Of a DNA stretch of 47,797 nt, positions 320-45,359 are shown in pieces. Source of the stretch: a virus (taxonomy: Duplodnaviria > Heunggongvirae > Uroviricota > Caudoviricetes). Below the pieces are notes generated by a model, which ran no database searches, was not told the origin of the DNA, and saw only the letters and a program-made list of their open reading frames with translations. The DNA is taken from the IMG/VR virus record IMGVR_UViG_2571042438_000008, one strand, 5' to 3'. Positions within the stretch are counted from its first letter, which is position 1. Each line of letters starts with the position of its first letter. The position numbers were made by a program, and so were the translations under genes.

Positions 320-3166
320 GTGAGTAAATTATTATTTACGATGACTGACGCCGGGCGTAAGGCGCTGGTTAATGCCAACAAGACTGGAACAAATAAAGTT
401 GAGATCGTTTCTGTTGGTTTAGGTAGTAGATATTATGCCACATCAACCACACAAACAAAAATAACAGATGAAATAAAGCGACTTACCACAATAGGAGGCA
501 AAGTCGTTTCTCCTGATACCATTCATGTAACTGCGAAGGATGATAGTAAAGATGAGTATGCTGTCCATACAATAGGTTTGTATACAAATAAAGGAACATT
601 GTTTGCTGTATACTCGCAAGAACAAGTAATAATAAATAAAGCATCTTCTACAATTGCTTTAATATCAAGTGATATAGCAATTAAAAATCTTGATACTAAA
701 AACATTACATTTGGTGATGTTGAGTTTATTAACCCTCCCGCAACCGAAACTGTTGTTGGAGTAGCAAGATTTGCTAATGAACAAGAAATTGATGCAGGTA
801 CAGATGATTCCCTGGCTGTTTCAGCAAAGCGGCTTAAGCAAGCTATTGTAAAACATGAGCAATCACGTAATCATCCTGATGCAACTTTAACATCAAAAGG
901 CATTGTTCAACTCAGTAATGCCACCAATAGCACGTCTGAAAAGCTCGCAGCGACGCCTAAGGCTGTTAAGGCTGCATATGACCTGGCTGACGGAAAATAT
1001 ACCGCCCAGAATGCCACCACGGCACAAAAAGGGATAGTTCAGCTCAGTAGTGCCACTAACAGTACGTCTGAAACGCAGGCGGCAACGCCAAAAGCGGTCA
1101 AGGCAGCAAATGACAACGCAAATTCACGTCTGGCGAAAAATCAGAACGGTGCAGATATCCAGGATAAATCAGCTTTTCTGGACAATGTTGGCGTTACCAG
1201 CCTGACGTTTATGAAAAACAATGGCGAAATGCCGCTTGATGCTGATCTGAATACGTTTGGTCCTGTTAAGGCTTATTCAGGTATCTGGTCTAAAGCAACA
1301 TCCACCAACGCAACACTGGAGAAAAATTTCCCGGAAGATAATGCTGTCGGTGTGCTTGAGGTTTTTGCTGCCGGCAATTTTGCAGGTACGCAACGCTTTA
1401 CCACGAGAGACGGCAATGTATACATGCGTAAACTCGCCAATAAGTGGAATGGCACTGATGGTCCGTGGGGCGTATGGCGTCACACTCAATCTGCTACCCG
1501 CCCTTTGAGTACGACTATAGACCTGAATACGCTTGGAGCCGCCGAGCATCTTGGTTTATGGCGTAACAGTAGCTCAGCTATAGCTTCATTTGCCCGCAAT
1601 TATCCGGAAGAAGGGAGCTATGCTCAGGGGATTCTCGAAGTTCTTGAAGGCGGCGGATATTCGCGAACACAGCGTTACACTACCAGTCGTGGAAATATGT
1701 ATGTACGCTGCCTTACCGCAAGCTGGGATGCATCAAATCCGCAGTGGGGACAGTGGCTAAGAATCGGCAGCCAGACTGCAAGCGGTTTCTTTGAAGGCGA
1801 TCTGAATAATCTGACCGATCCTGGTATTTACAGTGTTACAGGAAAGGCAACAAACGGTCCGATGCTGGACGCTGCTGGGGCGACATTGCTTGGGATACTG
1901 GAAGTAATCAGGCGTTTTGATGGTGTATCTGTCTGGCAGCGTTACACAACCACAGGAAAATCAGAAACCACACAGGGGCGCACTTTTGAGCGCGTCTACG
2001 CCGGGAGCACATGGACCGAATGGCGAGAAGTGTATAACTCCTTTTCGTTGCCCCTGAATCTGGGTATTGGCGGCGCAGTGGCAAAACTCACCAGCCTGGA
2101 CTGGCAGACCTACGACTTTGTGCCGGGCAGTCTGATAACCGTTCGGCTTGATAACATGACCAACATTCCCGACGGTATGGACTGGGGCGTCATTGATGGT
2201 AACCTGATAAACATCGCTGTTGGCCCAAGTGATGATACCGGTACGGGGCGCTCAATGAAGGTATGGCGCAGCACTGTAAGTAAAGCCAACTACCGCTTTT
2301 TTATGGTGCGCATTTCAGGAAATCCGGGAAGCCGCACGATCACAGCAAGACGAGTACCAATCATTGACGAAGCCCAGACATGGGGCGCGGAACAGACATT
2401 CAGCGGTGGTCTTTCAGGCGAACTATCCGGCAATGCTGCTACAGCAACAAAGCTGAAAACGGCAAGGACAATTAACGGCGTAAAATTTGACGGCTCGGCA
2501 AATATTGAAGCGTTTCCGCCAGGTGTTCCGCTGCCGTGGCCATCAGATACGCCACCTGCAGGTTATGCAATCATGCAGGGGCAGACGTTTGATAAGGCAG
2601 CATATCCGAAACTGGCTATTGCCTATCCTTCTGGTGTTATTCCAGATATGCGCGGCTGGACAATCAAGGGCAAACCCGCCAGTGGTCGGGCCGTATTGTC
2701 TCAGGAACAGGATGGCATTAAATCGCACACCCACAGTGCCAGCGCATCCAGTACGGATTTGGGTACGAAAACCACATCGTCGTTTGATTACGGTACTAAA
2801 TCAACGAATAACACAGGTGCACATACCCACAATGTATCTGGTACTGCAAATAGTGCTGGCGCACATACTCATACCGTTCCATTAAGGAGACCAAACAGTG
2901 GCGGTATGAATTTCGACTGGCTGGATGGTTCATCAAGTGGCACGGTGGTGGGGAATGGAACTGTGCCTTCTTCTGGCGCACATACCCACTCAGTATCAGG
3001 TACCGCTACAAGTGCTGGGGCACATGCACACACTGTTGGTATTGGCGCTCATACGCACTCTGTTAAGATTGGTTCACATGGACACACCATCACCGTTAAC
3101 GCTGCTGGTAACGCGGAAAACACCGTTAAAAACATCGCATTTAATTATATTGTGAGGCTTGCATAA
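320..3166 (+). CDS. Tail fibre protein (mosaic, side-tail-fibre type)
   Basis: 948 aa. Two copies of the conserved fibre repeat [24 protein letters not shown]. Three tandem ~85-aa knob-like repeats ([18 protein letters not shown] / [18 protein letters not shown] / [19 protein letters not shown]). The C-terminus carries GAHTHS/HxH repeats like T4 gp37, Mu S and lambda Stf-type fibres. It is followed by a Tfa gene. Confidence 0.9.
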
Positions 3167-3783
3167 TGGCATTCAGAATGAGTGAACAATCACGTACCGT
3201 AAAAATTTATAACCTGCTGGCCGGAACTAATGAGTTTATTGGTGAAGGTGACGCATATATTCCACCTCATACAGGGCTGCCAGCTAATTCTACAGATATC
3301 GCCCCACCGGAAATTCCTGCTGGCTTTGTGGCAGTTTTTAACAGTGAAAATGAATCGTGGAATATTGTTGAAGACCATCGTGGTAAAACGGTCTATGACG
3401 TGGCGTCGGGGGACGCATTGTTTATTTCTGAACTCGGACCGCTACCAGAGAATGTCACCTGGTTGTCGCCAGCAGGGGAGTATCAGAAGTGGGACGGCGT
3501 ATCCTGGGTGAATGATGAGGAAGCAGAAAAACTGTTTCGGATACGGGAAGCGGAAGAGAAAAAGGCAAGGTTGATCCAGGAAGCAACAGATAACATCGCA
3601 ATTCTGCAGGATGCAGTTAATCTTGAAATAGCAACAAACGAGGAAAATTCACAACTGGATTCCTGGAGAAAATACAGAGTATTAGTGAGTAGAATTGACA
3701 CCAGTACAGCTCCGGATATCGTATGGCCAGAGCTGATGAATCAGGGTTATGTTCGGGAGGACGAGCAGATAACTTCAGACTGA
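3166..3783 (+). CDS. tfa: Tail fibre assembly protein (Tfa / P2 G / Mu U family)
   Basis: The start overlaps the fibre stop (TAATG). The N-terminus ..[47 protein letters not shown].. is typical of the Tfa chaperone family. Confidence 0.85.
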
Positions 3784-4310
3784 AATTTAGTGATGAATGT
3801 TGAATCATCAGGAATATCATGCAATACCAATGCATGAGCACCTATTGTGACATTGTTTCCTATACGCACTTTGCCACCAAGAATGGTGGCATTACAACCA
3901 ATGGTCACATTATGCCCTATAACAATATCCATATCATTAAATTCCCCGCGAAGTCCAATAGTTACTCCGGGCTTAATTGAACAATTTTCACCGATTGTTA
4001 CTTTGTGACCGATAACAACACTGTTGAGATAAGAAATATCAAAGCCTTTCCCTATATTTACAGTTAAAGGGACTGTTACATTATATTTATCAAGAATGAA
4101 ACGTTCTATTTTTCCCGCAATCTTCCGACAGTATCCGCCTTTATCAAAAAGGTATTTGGCTATGCGCCACCAAAATAAATAACGAACCCTTCTATGTTTT
4201 ATTGCGCGAACAATTGCCTTTCGCCAGGAGAAAGGACGCTCGCTACCGATTACTTCATAGTGAATACAGTCTTTAAGTTCATTAATATTCATATCTTTAT
4301 TATTCAGCAT
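3747..4310 (-). CDS. Hexapeptide-repeat (LbH) O-acetyltransferase, WcaB/CysE-like; probable moron
   Basis: Repeated [LIV]-G-x4 hexapeptides ([49 protein letters not shown]). It is convergent with tfa and overlaps its 3-prime end by 37 bp. The region is visibly more AT-rich than its neighbours. Confidence 0.8.
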
Positions 4311-4725
4311 AAGATAATCATGTGACCAATTATTGTAATAATTTTAATGGTATGTTTCTACTGGCTATCCAGCGTGTCTGATATCCAGTAACAAATCGTC
4401 AACACGGGTGCAATCAAATGGTGAGTGTTAAGACTGACCACTTATTACCAGGTATGAGTGGCCAGCATTAAATCAGAACAGCCCTTTAACTGAACTGGCC
4501 GCGCTGTTAAGGGATGATGTCACCTTATCTTTGAAGCCGGACAGCATATTGCTGAACGATGAGTTTACCGCAGGTTTCTGGCTGGGAATCATTGACTGGA
4601 GTTAGGCCAGTAGTATGATGCTCGCAAAACGAGATCCAATTTAGATCCTTTTACTGGTGGATTATCGTTCGATCAGTGAGAGACTTCGTGCATGACCGAA
4701 AGTGTTGTGGTAGAGTTCTCTTAAA

Positions 4726-4905: not shown

Positions 4906-5754
4906 ATGGATAGACCAATGCCGTCTCTACGTTCAGCTTACGTTTGTAATTTGTCGCCGGAGTTCCAGCCTCCAAAGCACCATACGCACAAGCTGCCGCT
5001 GGTGTTATCTGATGCTTTACAGCGCATTAATGGGCGTGATCTTACGTGTGAGGTTGCGTTCTACGTTAATCAACCGTCAGAGCGGAAGCGCCGGATAAAC
5101 GAGCATCGTCGTCGGGCGATTAATGCTGTGATCGCTGCGATTTTGCACCATGTAAACATCATTTCTAAGCGGGTTCTGGCCAGTGCTGAGGCGTTGGCTG
5201 ATTTTTGCGGCCTGTCTACCGTATCCGAAGCTGGGAACAAGTCTATAACGCGCTGTACAAGGGCGTTGTCGCAACTGAAAGCGTTAGGTTTTATTGATTA
5301 TGAACGTCGCTGGGATCGGGTGAATAAACAGTATTGGCCAGCGAAAATAGAGATTCGTGATCAACTGCTGGAAACCGTTGGTATTACTGAACAAGCATGG
5401 AGACGTGCGGTTAGCCAGAAACTTAATTACTTCAATGCGAAGAATAGCGAACGGCTTAAAAAAGCGATAACGGAGGCTGATTATAAGCGTATTGTTATTC
5501 AGGAGCAGATGGAGAATGTATGGCATCAGAGGAAGACGGCCAGAGAGATAAAGGCAAAACAGAAAGCAGCGGAGAGAGCTGCGCGTCTTGTTCGGGAAAA
5601 GGGAGAGGCCGAACTTCGTCATCAAATCACTAGAGAGGTTAGCCAGGAATTTGCTGATGGCATGTATCCTGGAGCTGACCTTGCATATTTACGATCCCTC
5701 GTTGAGCAGCGTTATAACAGGTTAAGAAAGACCTGGAAATCACTCCAACATTAA
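4906..5754 (+). CDS. repA: Plasmid replication initiator, IncFII RepA family
   Basis: 282 aa from ATG 4906; the ORF is open from 4777 but that part is the hairpin region. The core RRAINAVIAAILHH..GNKSITRCTRALSQLKALGFIDYERRWD parallels the R1/R100 RepA1 core as I recall it (RRAIDALLQGLCFHY..GKLSITRATRALTFLSELGLITYQTEYD). A DnaA box and an AT-rich origin follow the gene. Confidence 0.85.
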   Translation: MDRPMPSLRSAYVCNLSPEFQPPKHHTHKLPLVLSDALQRINGRDLTCEVAFYVNQPSERKRRINEHRRRAINAVIAAILHHVNIISKRVLASAEALADFCGLSTVSEAGNKSITRCTRALSQLKALGFIDYERRWDRVNKQYWPAKIEIRDQLLETVGITEQAWRRAVSQKLNYFNAKNSERLKKAITEADYKRIVIQEQMENVWHQRKTAREIKAKQKAAERAARLVREKGEAELRHQITREVSQEFADGMYPGADLAYLRSLVEQRYNRLRKTWKSLQH

Positions 5755-5759
5755 CCCAC

Positions 5760-6030
5760 CTGAATGATGAATCCGGTTTTACCGGAGGATTATCTACGTC
5801 GCAATAAAATATCTGTTCAAAAAACAATCTAAATTAATTTTCTCTAAACCGGAACACAGCAAAAATATCGCCTTTACAGGCATCGGCTAATAAAGTTATC
5901 CACAGTTTTGATATGTATATGCAAATGGTTTTTTATAATAGATGCACTAAACAAATAAATGCAAAATCACTTTCTTTTATTAAGACTTTCTTTATTTAAC
6001 TTACGCAGGCTTTGCCTGTGAATATGTTCG
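5760..6030. other. Probable plasmid origin (oriR-like, AT-rich, downstream of repA)
   Basis: An AT-rich, ORF-free block directly after repA, as in IncFII replicons. It contains a consensus DnaA box. Confidence 0.6.
5896..5904 (+). promoter_or_regulatory. DnaA box, perfect consensus TTATCCACA
   Basis: An exact 9-mer inside the AT-rich region after repA. Confidence 0.7.
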
Positions 6031-7206: not shown

Positions 7207-7216
7207 AGGATTGAGC

Positions 7217-7564
7217 ATGTGGACGGTACTTTTTAGCCAGCGATTTGACGACTGGCTAAATGAGCAAGAAGACGCTCTTCAGGAAAAGGTTTTGGCTGAT
7301 TTGAAAAAGCTACAGGTTTACGGACCTGAGTTACCCAGGCCATATGCCGATACCGTAAAAGGTTCTCGGTACAAAAATATGAAAGAGCTTCGCGTTCAGT
7401 TTTCTGGCCGTCCGATAAGAGCCTTTTATGCGTTCGATCCGATTCGTCGGGCCATCGTTCTTTGTGCAGGAGACAAAAGTAACGATAAGCGGTTTTATAA
7501 AAAACTGGTGCGTATAGCTGAGGATGAGTTTGCAGCACATCTGAACACACTGGAGAGCAAGTAA
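7217..7564 (+). CDS. higB: Type II toxin, HigB-like / RelE-ParE superfamily (phage Gp49-type)
   Basis: 115 aa. The block ..YGPELPRPYADTVKGSRYKNMKELRVQFSGRPIRAFYAFDPIRRAIVLCAGDK.. is typical of the killer-protein family. The toxin-first order with an overlapping XRE antitoxin (ATGA-type junction) fits HigBA. Confidence 0.8.
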   Translation: MWTVLFSQRFDDWLNEQEDALQEKVLADLKKLQVYGPELPRPYADTVKGSRYKNMKELRVQFSGRPIRAFYAFDPIRRAIVLCAGDKSNDKRFYKKLVRIAEDEFAAHLNTLESK

Positions 7565-7863
7565 TGAGAACATTAGATGAGGTGATTGCCAGCCGTTCAC
7601 CTGAAAGCCAGGCGCGAATTAAAGAAATGGCAGATGAGATGATTCTTGAGGTCGGCTTGCAGATGATGCGTGAAGAACTCCAGTTATCACAAAAACAGGT
7701 TGCTGAGGCGATGGGTATAAGCCAGCCAGCAGTAACAAAGCTGGAGCAGCGCGGAAATGATTTAAAGCTGGCGACATTAAAGCGTTACGTTGAAGCTATG
7801 GGAGGCAAATTAAGCCTGGATGTTGAGCTTCCTACAGGAAAGCGAGTAGCGTTCCATGTCTAA
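7564..7863 (+). CDS. higA: Type II antitoxin, HigA-like XRE-family HTH
   Basis: The HTH is LSQKQVAEAMGISQPAVTKLEQ. The start overlaps the toxin stop. Confidence 0.8.
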   Translation: MRTLDEVIASRSPESQARIKEMADEMILEVGLQMMREELQLSQKQVAEAMGISQPAVTKLEQRGNDLKLATLKRYVEAMGGKLSLDVELPTGKRVAFHV

Positions 7864-9776: not shown

Positions 9777-9965
9777 ATGATGCGTAGAAAAGCGAGTTTG
9801 CTGCAAGCTATTGGGTCCATTATTTCTTTGTTTCCGGCAGTTGATCATTTTCGTCATATGGCGACACGTTCGAGTATGGGCTTGGCGCGTGACGCTGACG
9901 CTATTCGAAAGGATTTTCAGAAAGTCTCTGGTGTTGATAAGAGAGAAAAGAGTAAGGGGCCGTAG
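9777..9965 (+). CDS. Small hypothetical protein (62 aa; ORF open from 9753)
   Basis: MMRRKASLLQAIGSIISLFPAVDHFRHMATRSSMGLARDADAIRKDFQKV.. is not low-complexity. GGTGGA lies upstream of ATG 9777. The ORF ends inside a GC hairpin. Confidence 0.35.
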   Translation: MMRRKASLLQAIGSIISLFPAVDHFRHMATRSSMGLARDADAIRKDFQKVSGVDKREKSKGP

Positions 9966-9971
9966 CCCCTT
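9954..9971 (-). terminator. GC hairpin after the antirepressor gene stop
   Basis: AAGGGGC-CGTA-GCCCCTT. On the minus strand it is followed by a pyrimidine/U-rich tract. Confidence 0.45.
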
Positions 9972-9975
9972 GTAG

Positions 9976-11175
9976 TTATGGTCTGCTTTTCTGTGCCAGC
10001 TTATCAGCACATGTTTTTATCAGATCCTGTAGTGTCCTGGCTGGCAGGTTTGCATCCAGTACGCTGAGTATGCTGTTGTGATCTGCTTGGTCGACTACTT
10101 TGCCTGTCGGTGGTAGTAGCTTGAGCTGAGGATTCAGGTTTTCGTCAAAGCTGATAAGTGCTCTGGCGTTTCTGAGCAGATCAAGAAGTAAGGCTGATAT
10201 CACATTTTCCTGAGTCATTGCTGGCAGACTTAGCGCCGCTTTGGTTTTCCCTGTTGCCTTGTCAAACTCCTTGATTAGTTCCTTCCTGTAGTTCGGTTCC
10301 GTTAATAGCCGATTATGCTCTGTTGCCGCGCGGATAATCGTTTTTTCCTGGTATAGTCGTTTAGCCAGATCACGCTCGTACTGTGTTTTTAACACGCTGC
10401 TGATAGCGTTAAAGGCTTCAATGTAGGCCAGCTTGATATCTTTCACGCCTGGACCGTCGATGCTCTCCATGAGCAAGGTAAATCCGTCTTTTGTCATGCG
10501 ATAGATTGTTATTTCGCGGTCGCTTCCTTCCAGCGGTCGTTGCTCTTTAAAGAAGTGACGCGCCGCAGCCGTGCGAGGAATGCGTAGCGCATCGATGGCC
10601 ATAACGATGGAATTGTTTGTGGTGCTGAATGCCTGGGCAACATCGGCTGAGGTTGTGAGTGGCTCGTTGTTGCACACTTTAATGTAAAACATCGGTTTGG
10701 CGTTGAGCGTATCGACAACCTCACGAGCATTGCTTGGCGAGACGGTTACGGTCGCGGCCGTTTGCGCGTTCCGGCTGAAATAGCAGTCTTCCAGCCGTTC
10801 GAACACATCCCACGCTTGGTTAGTTTCAAGCATTTTGGCGTGACGTGCAGCCCCGCGTTCTGTCCAGAGAATGAGGGAGCGGGCTTTCGGGGAAATTTGT
10901 AACCCTCTTAAAGATGGTTGCACATTTTGTGAGTTACTTAAAGTAACCCGCAAATTTTGTGAGTGACTTAAAGTCACTCGCAAAGTTTTTAACTCATCGC
11001 CAGCCACTTTGAAAAAATGCTTTCCTTCAATAAAGCGGTTTGCGTTACGTGAGTAATTTTTTTTGATGTTATCAACGTCTGTGCCGTATAGCTTTGCCAG
11101 TAGTTCAGTAGTGATAACGGGGATCTGGTTATGCAGGATAGGCTGTAGGGTGTTAACGGTCGGAAGCGTTTTCAT
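9976..11175 (-). CDS. ant: Antirepressor-like protein (N-terminal ORF6N/KilA-N-like domain + Rha-like domain)
   Basis: The N-terminus IPVITTELLAKLYGTDVDNIKKNYSRNANRFIEGKHFFKV...ILWTERGAARHAKMLETNQAWDVFERLEDCYF is ORF6N-type. The middle EPLTTSADVAQAF..IYRMTKDGFTLLMESIDGPGVKDIKLAYIEAFN is Rha-type. The start overlaps the upstream ORF stop (ATGA). Confidence 0.8.
   Translation of the reverse strand: MKTLPTVNTLQPILHNQIPVITTELLAKLYGTDVDNIKKNYSRNANRFIEGKHFFKVAGDELKTLRVTLSHSQNLRVTLSNSQNVQPSLRGLQISPKARSLILWTERGAARHAKMLETNQAWDVFERLEDCYFSRNAQTAATVTVSPSNAREVVDTLNAKPMFYIKVCNNEPLTTSADVAQAFSTTNNSIVMAIDALRIPRTAAARHFFKEQRPLEGSDREITIYRMTKDGFTLLMESIDGPGVKDIKLAYIEAFNAISSVLKTQYERDLAKRLYQEKTIIRAATEHNRLLTEPNYRKELIKEFDKATGKTKAALSLPAMTQENVISALLLDLLRNARALISFDENLNPQLKLLPPTGKVVDQADHNSILSVLDANLPARTLQDLIKTCADKLAQKSRP
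10921..10980. repeat. Two tandem 30-bp repeats inside ant, each holding a 5-bp-arm palindrome (GTTAC-TTAAA-GTAAC / GTGAC-TTAAA-GTCAC)
   Basis: 10921-10950 and 10951-10980 differ at 4 positions. Two of those differences are compensatory (T:A to G:C) and preserve the palindrome. Confidence 0.8.
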
Positions 11176-11399
11176 TTTGCACCTCCCATAACTACTTTGG
11201 TTACGAGGGAGATTTTTGCGTCAGAAACAGCGTTATCGTTGCTGGCGATGCGCATAGCTTCGCGCTCGATGATTTCAGTCAGGCGGAATTTATCGGCGTA
11301 TGAGGCTTTCTTGAGAAGGATCTTTACGAGGTTGACGTAATAGTCATGGGGTAGGTTTGTCATTGTGATATCTCCAGTATATGGAACTATCACCGCCAT
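11172..11399 (-). CDS. Small protein translationally coupled to ant (position equivalent to P1 icd); alternative start ATG 11363 with a GGAG Shine-Dalgarno
   Basis: 75-aa ORF (63 aa from 11363). Its stop overlaps the ant start codon. I make no family call. Confidence 0.55.
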   Translation of the reverse strand: MAVIVPYTGDITMTNLPHDYYVNLVKILLKKASYADKFRLTEIIEREAMRIASNDNAVSDAKISLVTKVVMGGAK

Positions 11400-11413
11400 T
11401 CGAGGCTAATCAA

Positions 11414-11497
11414 ATGGTGGTGAGCCGTACAGGGTTAGCCTTACCGGACACAATGACGAACCGGCGCGGATTTCTCCGCCCCTGTACGACCCACCAT
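11414..11497 (-). ncRNA. Candidate structured regulatory RNA (c4-like) in the ant operon leader
   Basis: An 84-nt three-way structure. The outer stem is ATGGTGG/CCACCAT (7 bp), the second stem GTACAGGG/CCCTGTAC (8 bp), and the inner hairpins are GCGGA-TTTC-TCCGC (11466-11479) and CCGG..CCGG (11444-11464). The loop segment AGGCUAA (minus-strand RNA) is complementary to UUAGCCU, which occurs in two flanking direct repeats GAUUAGCCUC (11402-11411 and 11567-11576). Confidence 0.35.
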
Positions 11498-11525
11498 AAT
11501 TTGGGCGTAACAGTGCTCTACGCAT

Positions 11526-11545
11526 AAAAAAACCGCTAACGCGGT
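11526..11545 (-). terminator. Rho-independent terminator (minus strand) inside the ant leader
   Basis: On the minus strand ACCGC-GTTA-GCGGT is followed by T7. Confidence 0.65.
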
Positions 11546-11658
11546 ATGCGCCATCGTGTTATTCAGGAGGCTAATCCCGGCCGTAGATTTTGCTACGGCT
11601 CGGAAAGTGTCCACCAATGGCGCATTTATGTCAATACGGCGGGATTTTAACAGAGACA

Positions 11659-11673
11659 ACCACATAGCGTGGG
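11659..11673. promoter_or_regulatory. Near-perfect operator-like palindrome ACCAC-ATAGC-GTGGG in the ant leader
   Basis: 9/10 match to the ACCAC-N5-GTGGT family. It lies beside a minus-strand TAAAAT -10-like hexamer. Confidence 0.4.
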
Positions 11674-11691
11674 TTTATTGGTAGGCAGAAA

Positions 11692-11807
11692 CAAAAAAAC
11701 CGCCCTATTGAGGACGGTTCTTTCGTGCTGATCGGATTCGCGGTCCTTTCAGCATTACGTTGTTGTATAAACAACCACGCAAGCACAAGCAGCAAGTTAA
11801 TTTTACC
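11692..11807 (-). ncRNA. Candidate ~115-nt sRNA (promoter TTGAAG-N16-TATTAC, internal hairpin, strong terminator)
   Basis: Minus-strand features: -35 at 11836-11841 and -10 at 11814-11819; 5-prime region ..ACUUGCUGCUUGUGCUUGCG..; hairpin GTTGTT-TATA-CAACAAC; terminator AACCGUCC-UCAAUA-GGGCGGUU plus U7 (11692-11719). Nucleotides 11779-11793 are the exact complement of plus-strand 12037-12051. Confidence 0.45.
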
Positions 11808-12490: not shown

Positions 12491-12739
12491 TTACTTCTGG
12501 TTGTATTGAGCCTTGAGTAACTCAAAAGACTTTGTCAGCACTTCTTTCAATGACATATCCATTGAGCTGGCGAACGTTTTGTACTCGCGTTTAAATTCAG
12601 GGTCGACGTTAAACGCCATTTGTGCCCCACCTGATTTGGTTCTGGTTGGCGTTTCAGTCGGGTCGAAAACCTGCGGTTGTTCGATCGATGGCGGTACGCC
12701 TTTGCTGTTCTTCTTTGGTGGTTTTGATGGTGCGGCCAT
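12491..12739 (-). CDS. Small partition/centromere-binding protein, ParG/omega-like (disordered N-terminal tail + RHH-like C-terminus)
   Basis: 82 aa, directly downstream of parA. The C-terminus MAFNVDPEFKREYKTFASSMDMSLKEVLTKSFELLKAQ has a beta-alpha-alpha pattern. Its size and position fit type Ib par systems. Confidence 0.6.
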   Translation of the reverse strand: MAAPSKPPKKNSKGVPPSIEQPQVFDPTETPTRTKSGGAQMAFNVDPEFKREYKTFASSMDMSLKEVLTKSFELLKAQYNQK

Positions 12740-12751
12740 GTGTATCCCCTC

Positions 12752-12786
12752 TTATATAAATCTATAAAACTATAATTATATATTAT
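12752..12786. repeat. AT box (TTATATAAATCTATAAAACTATAATTATATATTAT) between parA and the parG-like gene
   Basis: Member of the dispersed AT-box family built from TATAATTATA and ATAAATCTATA words. Confidence 0.7.
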
Positions 12787-13451
12787 GCGGCAGTAGTCAG
12801 AGCCTCAAGCTGGTTGATAATCCCCTGAATAACGTCGTCTGCCTTTTTGCGTGGCGCAACGTATGAGCACTCAATGAGGCTTAAGCCCTTATCCTGAGCT
12901 TTGCTCAGAGCTGGCTTGTGGGGAATGTACTTATCGACAACAAAGTATGGCGTATTAGCCAGGTACTCTTGGGCTTCAATATAGTCAGCTTCGTTTTCAG
13001 CCGCGCCGGAAAACACCATGCAAATTTTCTTGATTGGTACACCCTTTTTAACGATGCCGTGAGCAGTGTTAACGGTGGTTTCCAGGTCATCGGTAGAGAA
13101 TCGGGTTGGCAAAATAACCATATCCAGAAATTCAGATAGCTTCGGTACTGATTCAGATGCGTAGGCACCGCCATCGACGATAACCAGGTCGTATACTTCT
13201 GATTCGATGATTTTCTGGACTTGTGATGGTGTGCCGCACGGCTGCGCCGCGATTGCTGGTTCGATATTGTTGGCCATTCTGCGTTGTACCCAACGCGTTA
13301 CCGTTCCGTTAAGCACATCCATATCGATCAGGCATACATTCCAGCCAGCCTTTGCATAAGCAACTGCTAAAGCACGGGCAATTGTTGATTTGGTTACGCC
13401 GCCTTTTCCGTTGAAAATACCTACAGAGATAGTCATTTGTCGAGGCTCCAT
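12783..13451 (-). CDS. parA: Partition ATPase ParA (type Ib, deviant Walker A)
   Basis: GKGGVTKST Walker A box. 222 aa with no N-terminal HTH extension. Confidence 0.9.
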   Translation of the reverse strand: MEPRQMTISVGIFNGKGGVTKSTIARALAVAYAKAGWNVCLIDMDVLNGTVTRWVQRRMANNIEPAIAAQPCGTPSQVQKIIESEVYDLVIVDGGAYASESVPKLSEFLDMVILPTRFSTDDLETTVNTAHGIVKKGVPIKKICMVFSGAAENEADYIEAQEYLANTPYFVVDKYIPHKPALSKAQDKGLSLIECSYVAPRKKADDVIQGIINQLEALTTAA

Positions 13452-13459
13452 GTGTTTGG

Positions 13460-13491
13460 TTATATAATTCTATAAATCTATATTTATAGAA
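13460..13491. repeat. AT box upstream of parA (TATATAATTCTATAAATCTATATTTATAGA)
   Basis: AT-box family member. Candidate centromere/operator. Confidence 0.7.
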
Positions 13492-13530: not shown

Positions 13531-13565
13531 TTTTATATAATTATATAAATCTATAATCATATAAG
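13531..13565. repeat. AT box upstream of parA (TTTTATATAATTATATAAATCTATAATCATATAA)
   Basis: AT-box family member. Candidate centromere/operator. Confidence 0.7.
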
Positions 13566-14053: not shown

Positions 14054-14710
14054 TCATAACCAGTTGACAACACTAACTACGCGGCCAAGAACTTTATAAC
14101 GCTTAAATTCCTCGTTATTCAGATGCTTAGTGTTCATTTCAGCATCCCTTTCGGTTGACAGCATAACAGCATTGTCACCCGGTATGACTCTACAGTGCCT
14201 CAAAACAACCAGGCCATTTCTGTCTTCAAGGGCATAGATCCCCTCATGAATCTCTGTATCGTCTGTATTAATCAGGACTTGGGAGCCTGGGGATATTGTT
14301 GGTGACATTAACTCATCGTTGCTCTGGAGAACTGACAGAGACGATGGGTTGATGTTCTTGCTTCGTAGAATCTCCTGTTCTATCGCCAGCACTGGCTTTT
14401 CTCCGGCGTGCGATGCTATGTCATTTTTTATAGCTACAAGCCCAGGAATAACAGGAGCGTTAGTATTCTGGGGTGGGAACGGGTTATCTGTTAAGCACGC
14501 GATATAAGGCGCTGATGCTTTCAGGGCGTGCGCGATTTTCTTGATGGCAGGTATAGATGGTTGTCTTAATCCGGCCTCATAGTTCTGCAAGGTGCTTAAG
14601 CCTATTCCAGTGACTTGCTGGAGATCTCCGGCAGTCATGCCGGATTGTTTCCGTAGAGTCTGAATGCGCAGACCTATTTCTTTCTTGATGTTCTCGTCGT
14701 TGCTTTTCAT
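14054..14710 (-). CDS. CI-like repressor (XRE HTH + S24 LexA-like C-terminal domain, catalytic dyad apparently substituted)
   Basis: The N-terminal HTH is MTAGDLQQVTGIGLSTLQNYEAG. The C-terminus aligns by eye to the S24 fold: DELMSPTISPGSQVLIN against GDSMEPTI.dGd.vlv, and GLVVLRHCRV against ..vvKRl... The gene is divergent from a Cro-like gene across an operator-rich region. Confidence 0.85.
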   Translation of the reverse strand: MKSNDENIKKEIGLRIQTLRKQSGMTAGDLQQVTGIGLSTLQNYEAGLRQPSIPAIKKIAHALKASAPYIACLTDNPFPPQNTNAPVIPGLVAIKNDIASHAGEKPVLAIEQEILRSKNINPSSLSVLQSNDELMSPTISPGSQVLINTDDTEIHEGIYALEDRNGLVVLRHCRVIPGDNAVMLSTERDAEMNTKHLNNEEFKRYKVLGRVVSVVNWL

Positions 14711-17235: not shown

Positions 17236-17296
17236 AAGTGTCATTTTGAGCTGTTTTGATGGTGTGTAGACATCGGGAACATCGAAAATCTATAAA

Positions 17297-17398
17297 TATA
17301 TAATTATAGATTTATATAAAAAGTGCTTTACAGGTGGGAAAAAATTTCCTATGGTTATACCCGAAACCGAGCGATACCCGCCCTGGTTAAACCGGAGA
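17297..17398 (+). repeat. Promoter-leader cassette, copy 2 of 3 (102 bp)
   Basis: -35 TTTACA at 17327-17332, -10 TATGGT at 17350-17355. Identity with copy 3 continues to the ATG (AATCTGATGA). An extra inverted AT word ATCTATAA lies upstream (17288-17295). Confidence 0.85.
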
Positions 17399-23030: not shown

Positions 23031-23064
23031 TATATATTTCTATAATTATATAAATATATAGTTA
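23028..23064. repeat. AT box (TAATATATATTTCTATAATTATATAAATATATAGTTA)
   Basis: AT-box family member directly after the lysis cassette. Confidence 0.6.
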
Positions 23065-23583: not shown

Positions 23584-24171
23584 ATGGAGGCAATTGCATT
23601 GTTTAATCTGATTTATGCAGATCCCCCCTGGGAATACAAAGATAAGTGTAAGGATGGGAATCGTGGAGCTGGTTTTAAGTATCCAACGATGAAAGCTGAG
23701 GATATTGCTCGTATTCCTGTCTGGCAGCTTGCTAATCCTGAATCGTGTTTGTTGGCCATGTGGTGGGTTCCGACTCAGCCAGAAGAAGCGTTGCTGGTGG
23801 TGAAAGCATGGGGATTCAGGCTTATGACCATGAAGGGCTTCACATGGAACAAATGTGGTAGCCGACAACCAGATAAGCTGGTGATGGGGATGGGGCATAT
23901 GACTCGTGCAAACAGTGAAGATTGCTTGTTTGCGGTAAAAGGCAAATTGCCGACCCGCCTTGATGCGGGGATCATTCAGTCGTTTACATCGCCTCGTCTG
24001 GAGCATTCTCGGAAGCCTGATGTGGTTCGTGACAAGCTGGTAAGGCTGTTAGGTGATGTTCCTCGTATTGAGCTGTTTTCTCGCGGTGATTTACCTGATG
24101 GTTGGCATGGCTGGGGCAACCAGTGCAATGGAGGTATCCAGTTGCATGATGCTCTCTGGCAAGTGGCATAA
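23584..24171 (+). CDS. MT-A70 family DNA N6-adenine methyltransferase
   Basis: DPPW catalytic motif (IYADPPWEY). FKYPTMK and EHSRKPD are typical MT-A70 blocks. Confidence 0.85.
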   Translation: MEAIALFNLIYADPPWEYKDKCKDGNRGAGFKYPTMKAEDIARIPVWQLANPESCLLAMWWVPTQPEEALLVVKAWGFRLMTMKGFTWNKCGSRQPDKLVMGMGHMTRANSEDCLFAVKGKLPTRLDAGIIQSFTSPRLEHSRKPDVVRDKLVRLLGDVPRIELFSRGDLPDGWHGWGNQCNGGIQLHDALWQVA

Positions 24172-24174
24172 AAT

Positions 24175-24276
24175 TATATAATTATATATTTATATAAAAA
24201 GTGCTTTACAGGTGGGAAAAAATTTCCTATGGTTATACCCGAAACCGAGCGATACCCGCCCTGGTTAAACCGGAGA
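24175..24276 (+). repeat. Promoter-leader cassette, copy 3 of 3 (102 bp)
   Basis: One mismatch to copy 2. -35 TTTACA at 24205-24210 and -10 TATGGT at 24228-24233. Confidence 0.85.
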
Positions 24277-44738: not shown

Positions 44739-45359
44739 ATGAATGATTTAGAAACATTATTACGTCAGACTATAAGAGTTGGCGTTGTTTCTGATATTGA
44801 TGATGGTGATGTTACAGCAAGAGTTACTTTCGATGATCAGGATAACGTCACTTCGGCAAAGTTATCAGTTATTGTGAAAAATACAGATAAGAATGCTGAT
44901 TACTGGATGCCAGATATTGGTGAGCAAGTTTTGTGTATCTTTCATCCCGCGGGGCCGCAACAAGGTTTTATTCTTGGTAGTTTTTATGATGAAACACAGA
45001 AGCCGCCATCTAATACTGTTAATAAACGCGTCATTAGATTTAATAACGGAACTCGTATTGAGATAGACAGAGAATCTAATTTACTCCTTGTTGATGCTGT
45101 CGGAGATGTAACCATTAAGGCTACAGGAACCGTAACTATTGATGCTCCAGAAACCATCATTACCGGAAATGCTACAGTTGAAGGATTACTAACCTTCAAA
45201 GGTGGAATGAAAGGATCTTCTGCTGGAGGTGTTGCAGCTACAATTTCTGGGAATGTTAAGGTTGTTGGTGGTGATATAGATGTTGATGGGATTAAATCTA
45301 AAGGCCACCATCACACAGCTCAGGGGGAATACGCTCCGACAACGGAGGCTCAGGCATGA
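44739..45359 (+). CDS. Baseplate central spike (P2 gpV-like)
   Basis: An OB-fold-like N-terminus (RVGVVSDIDDGDVTARVTFDD), a beta-helical repeat region and a C-terminal His-rich apex (KGHHHTAQG). Confidence 0.7.
   Translation: MNDLETLLRQTIRVGVVSDIDDGDVTARVTFDDQDNVTSAKLSVIVKNTDKNADYWMPDIGEQVLCIFHPAGPQQGFILGSFYDETQKPPSNTVNKRVIRFNNGTRIEIDRESNLLLVDAVGDVTIKATGTVTIDAPETIITGNATVEGLLTFKGGMKGSSAGGVAATISGNVKVVGGDIDVDGIKSKGHHHTAQGEYAPTTEAQA

Follow-up and report, generated by a model that had tools for sequence, protein, structure and literature searches.

A fixed-position palindrome with covarying arms in the ORF6N-coding segment of phage antirepressor-like genes

Introduction

Why should a palindrome persist inside a protein-coding gene while the letters that compose it change? 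The question is raised by an antirepressor-like gene (ant) in a 47,797-nucleotide (nt) stretch of viral DNA (Duplodnaviria; Heunggongvirae; Uroviricota; Caudoviricetes; IMG/VR record IMGVR_UViG_2571042438_000008), hereafter the window, which represents a ~48-kb temperate myovirus close to the Yersinia phages vB_YpM_39, _41 and _44. An initial annotation made from the sequence reported tandem 30-bp repeats in this gene whose inverted repeat had been kept during local drift, and proposed a second function such as a protein-binding site, an RNA hairpin pair that modulates translation (with the internal ant2 start of P1 in mind), a pac site or an origin. We find that the repeats are tandem copies of an old, nucleotide-level 27-nt dyad of ORF6N-domain genes, which occupies one fixed position and whose arms change and remain complementary. 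The array in the window is an in-frame amplification of this dyad, the extra copies of which lengthen a disordered loop.

Palindrome array in the window

The letters at 10921-10950 and 10951-10980 are identical to the tandem copies originally quoted, and the same repeat is found by Tandem Repeats Finder (Table 1). Each 30-bp repeat is composed of a 27-nt palindrome and one AAT codon. The two 19-nt core palindromes first noticed (10931-10949, 8/9 pairs; 10961-10979, 9/9 pairs) are correct, but the full unit is 27 nt long, with 12-bp arms flanking one centre codon (12 to 13 pairs per arm), and a third unit (unit C) had been missed. The array thus consists of three palindromes centred at 10970, 10940 and 10910, a spacing of exactly 30 bp, each centre being the middle base of a TTA leucine codon. 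All three units have a CTTTAAG centre and outer TTGC..GCAA bases in common. A search of the whole window with the consensus GAGTKACTTAAAGTMACTC, allowing up to three mismatches, gave 4 strand-hits against 0.07 expected, a number reached in 0/100 shuffles, and these correspond to the two 19-nt palindromes only.

Counting pairs outward from the centre (k), unit A has 11/12 Watson-Crick pairs over k=2 to 13, with C:A at k=10. Unit B differs from it by a compensated G:C to T:A pair at k=5, bearing out the double change that had drawn attention to the repeats. On the sense strand the four differences between the two copies are CGA/CGG and GTG/GTT (both synonymous), CAC/AAC (His/Asn) and TTG/GTG at the unit boundary. 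Besides the two that make up the double change, one more of these differences (10948 C versus 10978 T) falls on a paired position. Through the compensated pair, a synonymous valine-codon site is linked to the choice of residue at a distance of four codons. Single strands of the units are predicted to fold as both DNA and RNA on either strand (z -2.5 to -7.9). As a DNA hairpin, unit A has a predicted energy of -7.4 kcal/mol on the sense strand (z -5.2) and -9.7 kcal/mol on the antisense strand (z -7.9), and folding as RNA gives the predicted hairpins at -30.6 kcal/mol on the sense strand (z -4.3) and -41.2 kcal/mol on the antisense strand (z -6.8). Immediately upstream, the codons of the conserved GKHFFKV motif (~11010-11030, minus strand) contain another, shorter palindrome (for instance CACTTT-TTC-AAAGTG in Shiga-toxin (Stx) phage copies), in which the H codon is the reverse complement of the V codon and the F codon that of the K codon. 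This palindrome is weaker than the units, differs where Y/I substitutions occur and may have arisen by chance.

Among close relatives, the proteins of vB_YpM_41 and vB_YpM_39 are nearly identical to that of the window except in a cassette at amino acids (aa) ~28-100, and both are without the two added units. At the homologous place vB_YpM_41 has a perfect palindrome with the same CTTTAAG core and other arms (TTGAAAATCTCT-TTA-AGAGATTTTCAA, encoding LKISLRDFQ), and vB_YpM_39 has a decayed one. The cassette allele of Gifsy-1 anrP is essentially that of vB_YpM_39, and its palindrome copy is likewise decayed. The Stx phage VT2-Sakai carries the same three-unit array, with two further pairs changed on both sides in its first unit (GGGTAGCT-TTA-AACTACTC). 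Copy number varies, there being one unit fewer in CP-1639 and one more in some E. coli prophages; one to three LRV-type units precede the LQPSLRGLQ unit among homologues, and a unit of the latter type (unit C of the window) closes the array in Stx-phage ant genes. Two E. coli-type loci contain a hybrid unit, TTGCGAGTGACT-TTA-AGTAACTCACAA, which joins the inner 5' arm of unit A to the inner 3' arm of unit B with a G/A mismatch and could have arisen by unequal crossover between adjacent 30-bp repeats.

Conservation across ORF6N genes

For Proteobacteria we assembled 160 loci, drawn from viral contigs and one genome per species, whose products are related to the N-terminal domain; they yielded 130 unique coding sequences. 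At least one palindrome is present between the GKH(F/Y)F and LWTERGAARHAKM motifs in 126 of these, centred on codon position 2 and located at the end of the helix following the conserved GKHFF motif. Different lineages have unrelated arms, as in CACAGAGTGACT-AAT-AGTCACTCTGTG, CACTTGGCCTCT-CAA-AGAGGCCAAGTG, GACAGACTGACA-AAT-AGTCAGTCTGTC and TTGCGACTTACT-TTA-AGTAAGTCACAA. Codons at equal distances on the two sides of the centre are reverse complements of each other, so that one half of the encoded residues determines the other. Read from the outside in, the residue pairs are L with Q or H/N/D with V, then R/Q with S/L, followed by inner pairs of V with H/N/Y/D, L with K/E/Q, P with G, I with D and M with H, and lastly T with S or S with R. 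A-rich flanks adjoin the units on both sides of the sense strand. Overall, a palindrome at the homologous codon was found in ORF6N genes of Enterobacterales (E. coli, Yersinia and Salmonella phages), Acinetobacter, Desulfovibrionaceae and Firmicutes phages.

The best palindrome among 106 distinct variable regions reaches at least 10/12 pairs in 81, at least 11/12 in 29 and 12/12 in five. Synonymous-codon resampling of these genes with the protein held fixed gave means of 3.2 (maximum 7), 0.29 and 0.02, respectively, and shuffling of codon order left a mean of 1.8 with at least 10/12. Synonymous resampling thus destroys the palindrome, indicating that the constraint acts on nucleotides and forces the residue pairs. 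In an alignment of 86 units, each of the 12 pairs varies on both sides and 88% of cells are paired compared to 58% after shuffling, a percentage inflated by the preselection of these units at 9/12 pairs or more, for which the resampling of 106 genes serves as the unbiased control. The covariation score of the 86 units is 0.711 versus 0.217 when shuffled (0/500 shuffles), dropping to 0.07-0.15 in slid registers. Pairing ends at k=14-15. Synonymous third positions follow their partners, with CAC..GTG, AAC..GTT and GAC..GTC at k=13 and GTN..NAC and CTN..NAG at k=7.

The search was spread over phage genomes with tblastn, taking the best palindrome in the first 420 nt. It reached ORF6 of TP901-1, the protein from which ORF6N takes its name, together with Lactobacillus PLE2, Paenibacillus, Brevibacillus, Bacillus, Brochothrix and Clostridium phages and Azospirillum phage Cd, and in most of these the best palindrome lies at the homologous codon. 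Examples are TP901-1 (AACAACATCCAA-AAT-TTGGATGTAGTC), PLE2 (GACCAAGTCAAA-GAT-TTTGACCTGGTG), Bacillus phage McSteamy (CGCGACCTGAAT-AAT-ATTCAGCTCGTG) and Clostridium phage phiCD211 (GTTGCTTAT-GAG-ATAAGCGAC), with a 10-bp stem in Azospirillum phage Cd. Enlarging the Firmicutes-type set by 80 further loci gave 43 distinct genes. The site shows 9/12 pairs or more in 31 of them, where synonymous resampling leaves 2.9 such genes (maximum 9), and elsewhere in these genes just 2.7% of 11-codon windows attain 9/12. Resampled genes of this set score 7.0 at the site and 6.4 in other windows. Thirteen lineages have the centre on codon position 2 and ten have it on position 1, and this use of two reading-frame registers indicates that the palindrome is no by-product of codon symmetry, the nucleic-acid element staying in place as the frame shifts by one base. 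It has been lost or has decayed in a few genes (Brochothrix, Abouo, Gifsy-1/vB_YpM_39), and still has 10-12/12 pairs in genes where 300-420 nt of a longer open reading frame (ORF) precede ORF6N.

These results change the standing of the original observation. A local drift event is not what the homologues display, the palindrome being a family-wide property of ORF6N genes in which the compensatory pattern recurs and the number of extra units varies. The suspicion that something is overlaid on the coding sequence is strongly supported by covariation at 12/12 pairs and by synonymous resampling in two independent gene sets.

Encoded protein and structure model

The initial annotation regarded LRVTLS(H/N)SQN as an in-frame duplication within an ORF6N-like domain, which the Pfam match (Table 1) and the variable copy number of homologues confirm. 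The match spans positions 3-86 of the 86-position profile, and the two added repeat units account for its 20 surplus residues. Further along the protein, Phage_pRha is matched at aa 174-258; phrog_8244 covers the full-length protein and several anti-repressor PHROGs match the N-terminal domain. In an AlphaFold2 model (mean predicted local distance difference test score, pLDDT, of 79), unit A occupies the second half of a helix at residues 60-71, and units B and C lie within residues 73-91 (pLDDT <50), the sole low-confidence segment apart from residues 1-3. The placement of the added units in a low-confidence loop suggests that the protein would tolerate the palindrome. No relative was found by a sequence search of the PDB, and Foldseek returned only weak matches to winged-helix-like Ski/Dachshund domains (E ~1).

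DNA or RNA

If the element acted as RNA, wobble pairs should be favoured over the mismatches that form on the opposite strand. In lineage-thinned hairpins, however, Proteobacteria have 35 G:T and 23 A:C mismatches and the Firmicutes set has 12 and 14, respectively (47 versus 37 in total, p = 0.33), and G:T makes up only ~5% of pairs. The symmetry often runs through an AT-rich centre (CTTTAAG, CAAATTG, AAAATTT) and includes the innermost pair, which is impossible in a hairpin. The covariance models of Rfam 15 produced on the units only sub-threshold, chance-level snoRNA or miRNA matches (E ~1-6), and nothing at gathering score overlies the palindromes of homologous loci. Terminator calling over 10897-10983 on both strands found no intrinsic terminator-like site. 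Any T runs of the antisense strand are short or begin at some distance from the stem, and a T run directly after the stem is limited to the E. coli-type LK(N/T)L context rather than being family-wide; an intrinsic terminator was consequently rejected. The balanced mismatches and the lack of an Rfam match or terminator fit a DNA-level dyad better than an RNA hairpin, and the idea of a hairpin pair modulating translation is weakened by the absence of wobble bias. Occurrence in lambdoid phages, a myovirus, Firmicutes phages and genes with an internal ORF6N domain argues against a role tied to one operon or genome position.

Several more specific functions were considered. The CI-like repressor is 99.8% identical between the window and three Yersinia phages whose palindromes differ or have decayed, which excludes a sequence-specific operator for this prophage repressor. 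Furthermore, the same putative recognition helix (aa 32-47) occurs with different arms, as judged by inspection and not by a formal test. We see no sign of an ant2-type internal start, the Shine-Dalgarno-like AAGAGGG in unit C having no usable start codon after it, and nothing in the sequence or its context suggests pac or an origin. Lambda-type origin iterons were rejected given that the gene encodes ORF6N and pRha domains with anti-repressor matches and that no AT-rich block follows the units. Serine-invertase sites of the hix/gix/cix type are 26 bp long, with two 12-bp half-sites and a 2-bp core; the units have an odd centre of 1 or 3 nt and were not accepted as such crossover sites. We know of no resemblance of the units to the hix consensus, and no invertase is annotated nearby in the fetched Stx-phage, Gifsy-1 and Firmicutes-phage loci (whole genomes were not checked). 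As a partition centromere, the AT-rich 8-bp repeats by parA are better candidates, and the palindrome also occurs in integrated lambdoid prophages. The microRNA-size RNA 24B_1 of phi24B and its d_ant target concern a different ant gene, downstream of the lysis genes; the small RNA IsrJ lies 3' of Gifsy-1 anrP, away from the palindrome; and a satellite integration target finds no footing in the paper on helper-embedded satellites, where ORF6N appears as a domain label only.

Preferred and alternative explanations

The explanation that we tentatively prefer, while holding it short of probable, is that the palindrome is a selected cis element of DNA capable of forming a hairpin or cruciform. Selection on intrastrand pairing or DNA dyad symmetry, in a single-stranded DNA hairpin or an AT-centred cruciform, would keep the arms complementary, with template switching from arm to arm as the likely mutational route for their joint change. 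Selection is modestly favoured by the depth of conservation and positional fidelity, the sharp outer boundary and the cost of residue pairs in a conserved domain; DNA is favoured over mRNA by the balanced mismatch spectrum, strict Watson-Crick complementarity and independence of context. The palindrome might act in cis on the antirepressor gene as a structure-dependent site, and the predicted DNA-binding ORF6N domain might be its reader, giving autogenous control with site and reader in one recombination unit. ORF6N is the only reader that would explain why the palindrome always travels with the domain, and the variation of mid-arms even within one gene means that such a reader would need structure specificity. 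This narrower proposal, a structure-specific intragenic dyad belonging to the ORF6N module and most plausibly read by the domain it helps to encode, is rather doubtful.

Several observations weigh against selection for a DNA structure and its reading by ORF6N. DNA binding by ORF6N is a prediction from the annotation of the family, the fold matches being weak. The arms differ even where proteins are nearly identical, and a single gene contains three sets of them; a protein reader must therefore be structure-specific or read only the constant centre and outer bases. Position k=10 is mismatched in ~40% of lineages even though a synonymous change could repair it, indicating that selection on pairing is not uniform. 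Stem length varies, reaching 14 pairs in vB_YpM_41 and, with G:U included, 17 on the antisense strand of the window. Extrusion of a cruciform with 12-bp arms is not assured in vivo, and purely mutational copying between arms would also yield strict complementarity without wobble.

The last point leads to the rival that we consider somewhat unlikely yet weighty, namely a self-perpetuating, functionless quasi-palindrome in a permissive segment, in which template switching copies one arm to the other and the peptide follows. Template switching is known to create and maintain perfect hairpins and to homogenise the arms of coding inverted repeats, and quasi-palindromes are mutational hotspots in E. 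coli (PMC8794818, PMC8604942, PMC7202029). An imperfect inverted repeat with a short spacer, as present here (12-bp arms, 1-3 nt spacer, 9-12/12 pairs), would have both arms change together, mimicking compensatory evolution, with strict Watson-Crick complementarity and no strand or wobble bias. The freely varying arms devoid of a conserved reader-like motif, the occurrence in every genomic and domain context, as for a property intrinsic to the DNA segment, and the variable stem length and copy number, with extra units in a disordered loop, are in keeping with it. Less easily accommodated are the retention of one codon position with ~12-bp arms in ~70-75% of lineages from Proteobacteria and Firmicutes, the imposition of residue pairs on part of a conserved-domain helix, the sharp boundary at k=13-14, and the recurrent k=10 mismatch beside well-kept inner pairs, which efficient arm correction should erase. 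Comparison of close neighbours, with few informative pairs, revealed 13 single-step toggles between pair and mismatch and one compensated pair, intermediates being present. In E. coli, measured correction rates of quasi-palindromes are of the same order as the rate of point mutation added up over 24 arm bases, so that neutral maintenance would be marginal.

RNA hairpins in the transcript of ant or in an antisense transcript, serving to pause RNA polymerase or ribosomes, to set Rho-dependent termination when the small ORF upstream is untranslated (P1-type c4 control), or as nuclease sites or stabilisers, appear improbable. Both strands do fold well as RNA, A-rich flanks border the units, and the layout of an isrK/c4-controlled operon with predicted translational coupling is one where premature termination would matter; against this stand the G:U and A:C counts, which are not biased on either strand, complementarity that often extends to the innermost pair, impossible in a hairpin, the 3-nt loops, the missing U-tract, terminator call and Rfam family, and the presence of the palindrome in Firmicutes and internal-domain genes, outside the isrK/C4 module that Rfam detects in proteobacterial loci. 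A sequence-specific, operator-like site for a dimeric protein, be it the prophage repressor or another, is highly improbable: the dyad is perfect through its centre, three sites recur at a regular 30 bp or about three helical turns, and the centre and outermost bases are constant in the three units, but the near-identity of CI, the absence of any other copy of the site in the 47.8-kb window and the pairing of one putative recognition-helix sequence with different arms speak against it, and sequence-specific recognition leaves the complementarity of the variable mid-arms unexplained. That we are dealing with an ordinary in-frame peptide repeat, palindromic by chance or through its amino-acid motif, can be dismissed for practical purposes. 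The amino-acid sequence alone lifts the palindrome score slightly, as the resampled genes show, but the resampling of two gene sets and the covariation of synonymous sites with their partners refute this account, and the two registers also oppose it.

Operon and genomic surroundings

Besides ant, the window encodes a P2-type tail fibre, a putative invertase and the CI-like repressor (14054-14710). The P1-type setting implied by the initial annotation is borne out by an operon of c4/isrK, a small ORF and ant (Table 1). The orf45-anrP pair of Gifsy-1 is coupled at the same kind of AUGA overlap, and its AnrP induces Gifsy-1 experimentally (PMC4825925). On the basis of this operon layout, shared with Gifsy-1 isrK-orf45-anrP, assignment of the window gene as an antirepressor seems reasonable by homology. 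The ant gene in the nin region of VT2-Sakai and Gifsy-1 anrP have isrK, C4 and a1/b1 upstream (2956-3154 and 1248-1446 of the respective loci), all above gathering score, RF03163 included. These shared RNA matches point to a module of isrK/c4, small ORF and ORF6N antirepressor common to lambdoid Stx phages, Gifsy-1 and the window myovirus.

Table 1. Coordinates of the features of the window (position 1 is its first letter).
Feature	Position	Strand	Description
Terminator-like hairpin	9954-9984	both	AAGGGGCTACGGCCCCTT and T-rich tail; just 3' of the ant-like stop (-), overlaps last codons (+)
Antirepressor-like gene (ant)	9976-11175	-	399 aa; ORF6N, Phage_pRha and a C-terminal region of no known family
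ORF6N-coding segment	10831-11142	-	aa 12-115; Pfam PF10543, E 4.5e-20, 72.2 bits (gathering cut-off 27.8)
Hypervariable cassette	10876-11094	-	aa ~28-100; scrambled between otherwise ~98% identical phages; contains the palindromes
Palindrome unit C	10897-10923	-	GTGCAACCATCT-TTA-AGAGGGTTACAA; aa 85-93 VQPSLRGLQ; 9/12 pairs
Tandem 30-bp repeat	10920-10989		Tandem Repeats Finder: period 30, 2.3 copies, 87% matches, score 89
Palindrome unit B	10927-10953	-	TTGCGGGTTACT-TTA-AGTAACTCACAA; aa 75-83 LRVTLSNSQ; 10/12 pairs
Palindrome unit A	10957-10983	-	TTGCGAGTGACT-TTA-AGTCACTCACAA; aa 65-73 LRVTLSHSQ; centre is base 2 of the Leu69 codon
Small upstream ORF	11172-11399	-	75 aa, icd/orf45-like; stop overlaps the ant start (ATGA)
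C4-type antisense RNA	11413-11501	-	Rfam RF01695, 70.8 bits (gathering score 45)
isrK-type RNA	11526-11599	-	Rfam RF01394, 68 bits (gathering score 50)
a1/b1 target region	11560-11612	-	RF03163, 36.7 bits, under the gathering score of 46.7; overlaps isrK
82-aa gene	12491-12739		follows the ParA-type gene; no Pfam match
AT-rich 8-bp tandem repeat	12755-12775		TATAAAAC; flanks the parA pair
Small ParA-type ATPase	12783-13451	-	
AT-rich 8-bp tandem repeat	13463-13482		TATAAATC; flanks the parA pair
AT-rich 8-bp tandem repeat	13533-13564		TTATATAA; flanks the parA pair
AT-rich 8-bp tandem repeat	17286-17320		AAATATAT; resembles those near parA
AT-rich 8-bp tandem repeat	23031-23064		TATATAAT; resembles those near parA
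AT-rich 8-bp tandem repeat	24168-24197		ATATAATT; resembles those near parA

Compared with vB_YpM_41 and vB_YpM_39 (4380-4700 of their loci), the C4/isrK region of the window (11400-11700, minus strand) differs in three discrete blocks, the flanks and the icd-like ORF being almost identical. The blocks have the appearance of loops that set allelic specificity in the antisense RNA and its targets, on the pattern of P1/P7 immI heteroimmunity. With RNA loops and ORF6N cassette differing and CI 99.8% identical, these near-identical phages differ specifically in their immI determinants. In vB_YpM_41 an Rfam match to ryfA (134.6 bits; 5605-5903 of the locus) lies ~1.5 kb from the ant gene, a place equivalent by offset to ~12.6-12.9 kb of the window. 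The hairpin at the 3' end of ant is plausibly a bidirectional terminator closing the operon.

Elsewhere in the window, the ParA pair and its repeats look like a type Ib partition cassette with centromere or operator, which suggests that the prophage may be kept as a plasmid. By similarity to annotated relatives, the ORF pair 7211-7564 and 7564-7863 probably encodes a HigB2-type toxin and its partner, and a 187-aa ORF adjoining the tail-fibre genes (3747-4310, minus strand) a putative Hin-type DNA invertase. A 24-bp tandem repeat (45108-45155; two copies, 79% matches) lies within a late-region ORF.

Significance

The window gene's own ORF6N subtype alone accounts for 3078 proteins at E <= 1e-5, and antirepressors of the ORF6N type abound in prophages, Shiga-toxin phages and Salmonella Gifsy-1 among them. 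Either outcome would be informative for a palindrome that keeps one codon position from lactococcal to enterobacterial phages and is strict enough to determine residue pairs over nine codons. If selected, it would be a cis element, so far unrecognised, in control of genes by which prophage induction is triggered; if neutral, it would be an unusually clear natural case of a palindrome kept alive for long in coding sequence through copying between its arms. Should ORF6N read its own coding segment, cis site and trans factor would be inseparable under domain shuffling of the Bro/Ant type, and a DNA structure would dictate amino acids in part of a conserved domain. For protein-family analysis there is a caution, in that apparent covariation of ORF6N residues reflects DNA complementarity and not protein contacts.

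Comparison with known systems

A full-text literature search combining ORF6N or antirepressor with palindrome, hairpin, stem-loop or inverted repeat returned no prior description, most subscription journals being outside its coverage, and the nearest known arrangements differ from the ORF6N palindrome in defining respects. Lambda-type origins have iterons within the O gene that are bound sequence-specifically by O, are only partly symmetric and lie beside an AT-rich unwinding region, the whole serving as a replication origin. Like the palindrome, these iterons are short dyad repeats in frame in the gene of a DNA-binding protein, where they encode a flexible, variable stretch, and site and specificity part are inherited as one recombination unit with alleles that differ between related phages. 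Unlike them, the palindrome resides in an antirepressor gene, has fully complementary 12-bp arms that covary freely and is accompanied by nothing indicating an origin.

A cis site within the gene of its binding protein is also represented by parS inside spo0J/parB, and HK022 Roi reportedly binds within the roi gene; by analogy, the ORF6N palindrome may be seen as a further palindromic site embedded in the coding sequence of a DNA-binding-protein gene. However, parS is conserved in sequence whereas the arms of the palindrome covary. Roi was set aside as a direct precedent and serves as an analogy, the Roi-type gene next to Stx ant encoding pRha and KilAC without ORF6N, in the same domain-shuffling network of Bro, Ant and Rha.

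The P1/P7 immI and Gifsy-1 isrK-orf45-anrP operons (PMC4825925) share with the window C4/isrK RNA, a small ORF with ATGA overlap and an antirepressor, AnrP of Gifsy-1 being an ORF6N homologue. The regulation described for them acts upstream of the antirepressor start, and the intragenic palindrome falls outside the published mechanism (PMC4825925); unlike that module, it is also present in Firmicutes ORF6N genes and internal-domain genes, beyond the loci where the module was detected. Hairpins shaped by template switching resemble the palindrome in their short spacer, co-changing arms, exclusively Watson-Crick pairing and reshaping of coding sequence (PMC8794818, PMC8604942, PMC7202029). They are, however, lineage-specific events or laboratory hotspots, whereas the ORF6N palindrome is fixed at one codon across phyla.

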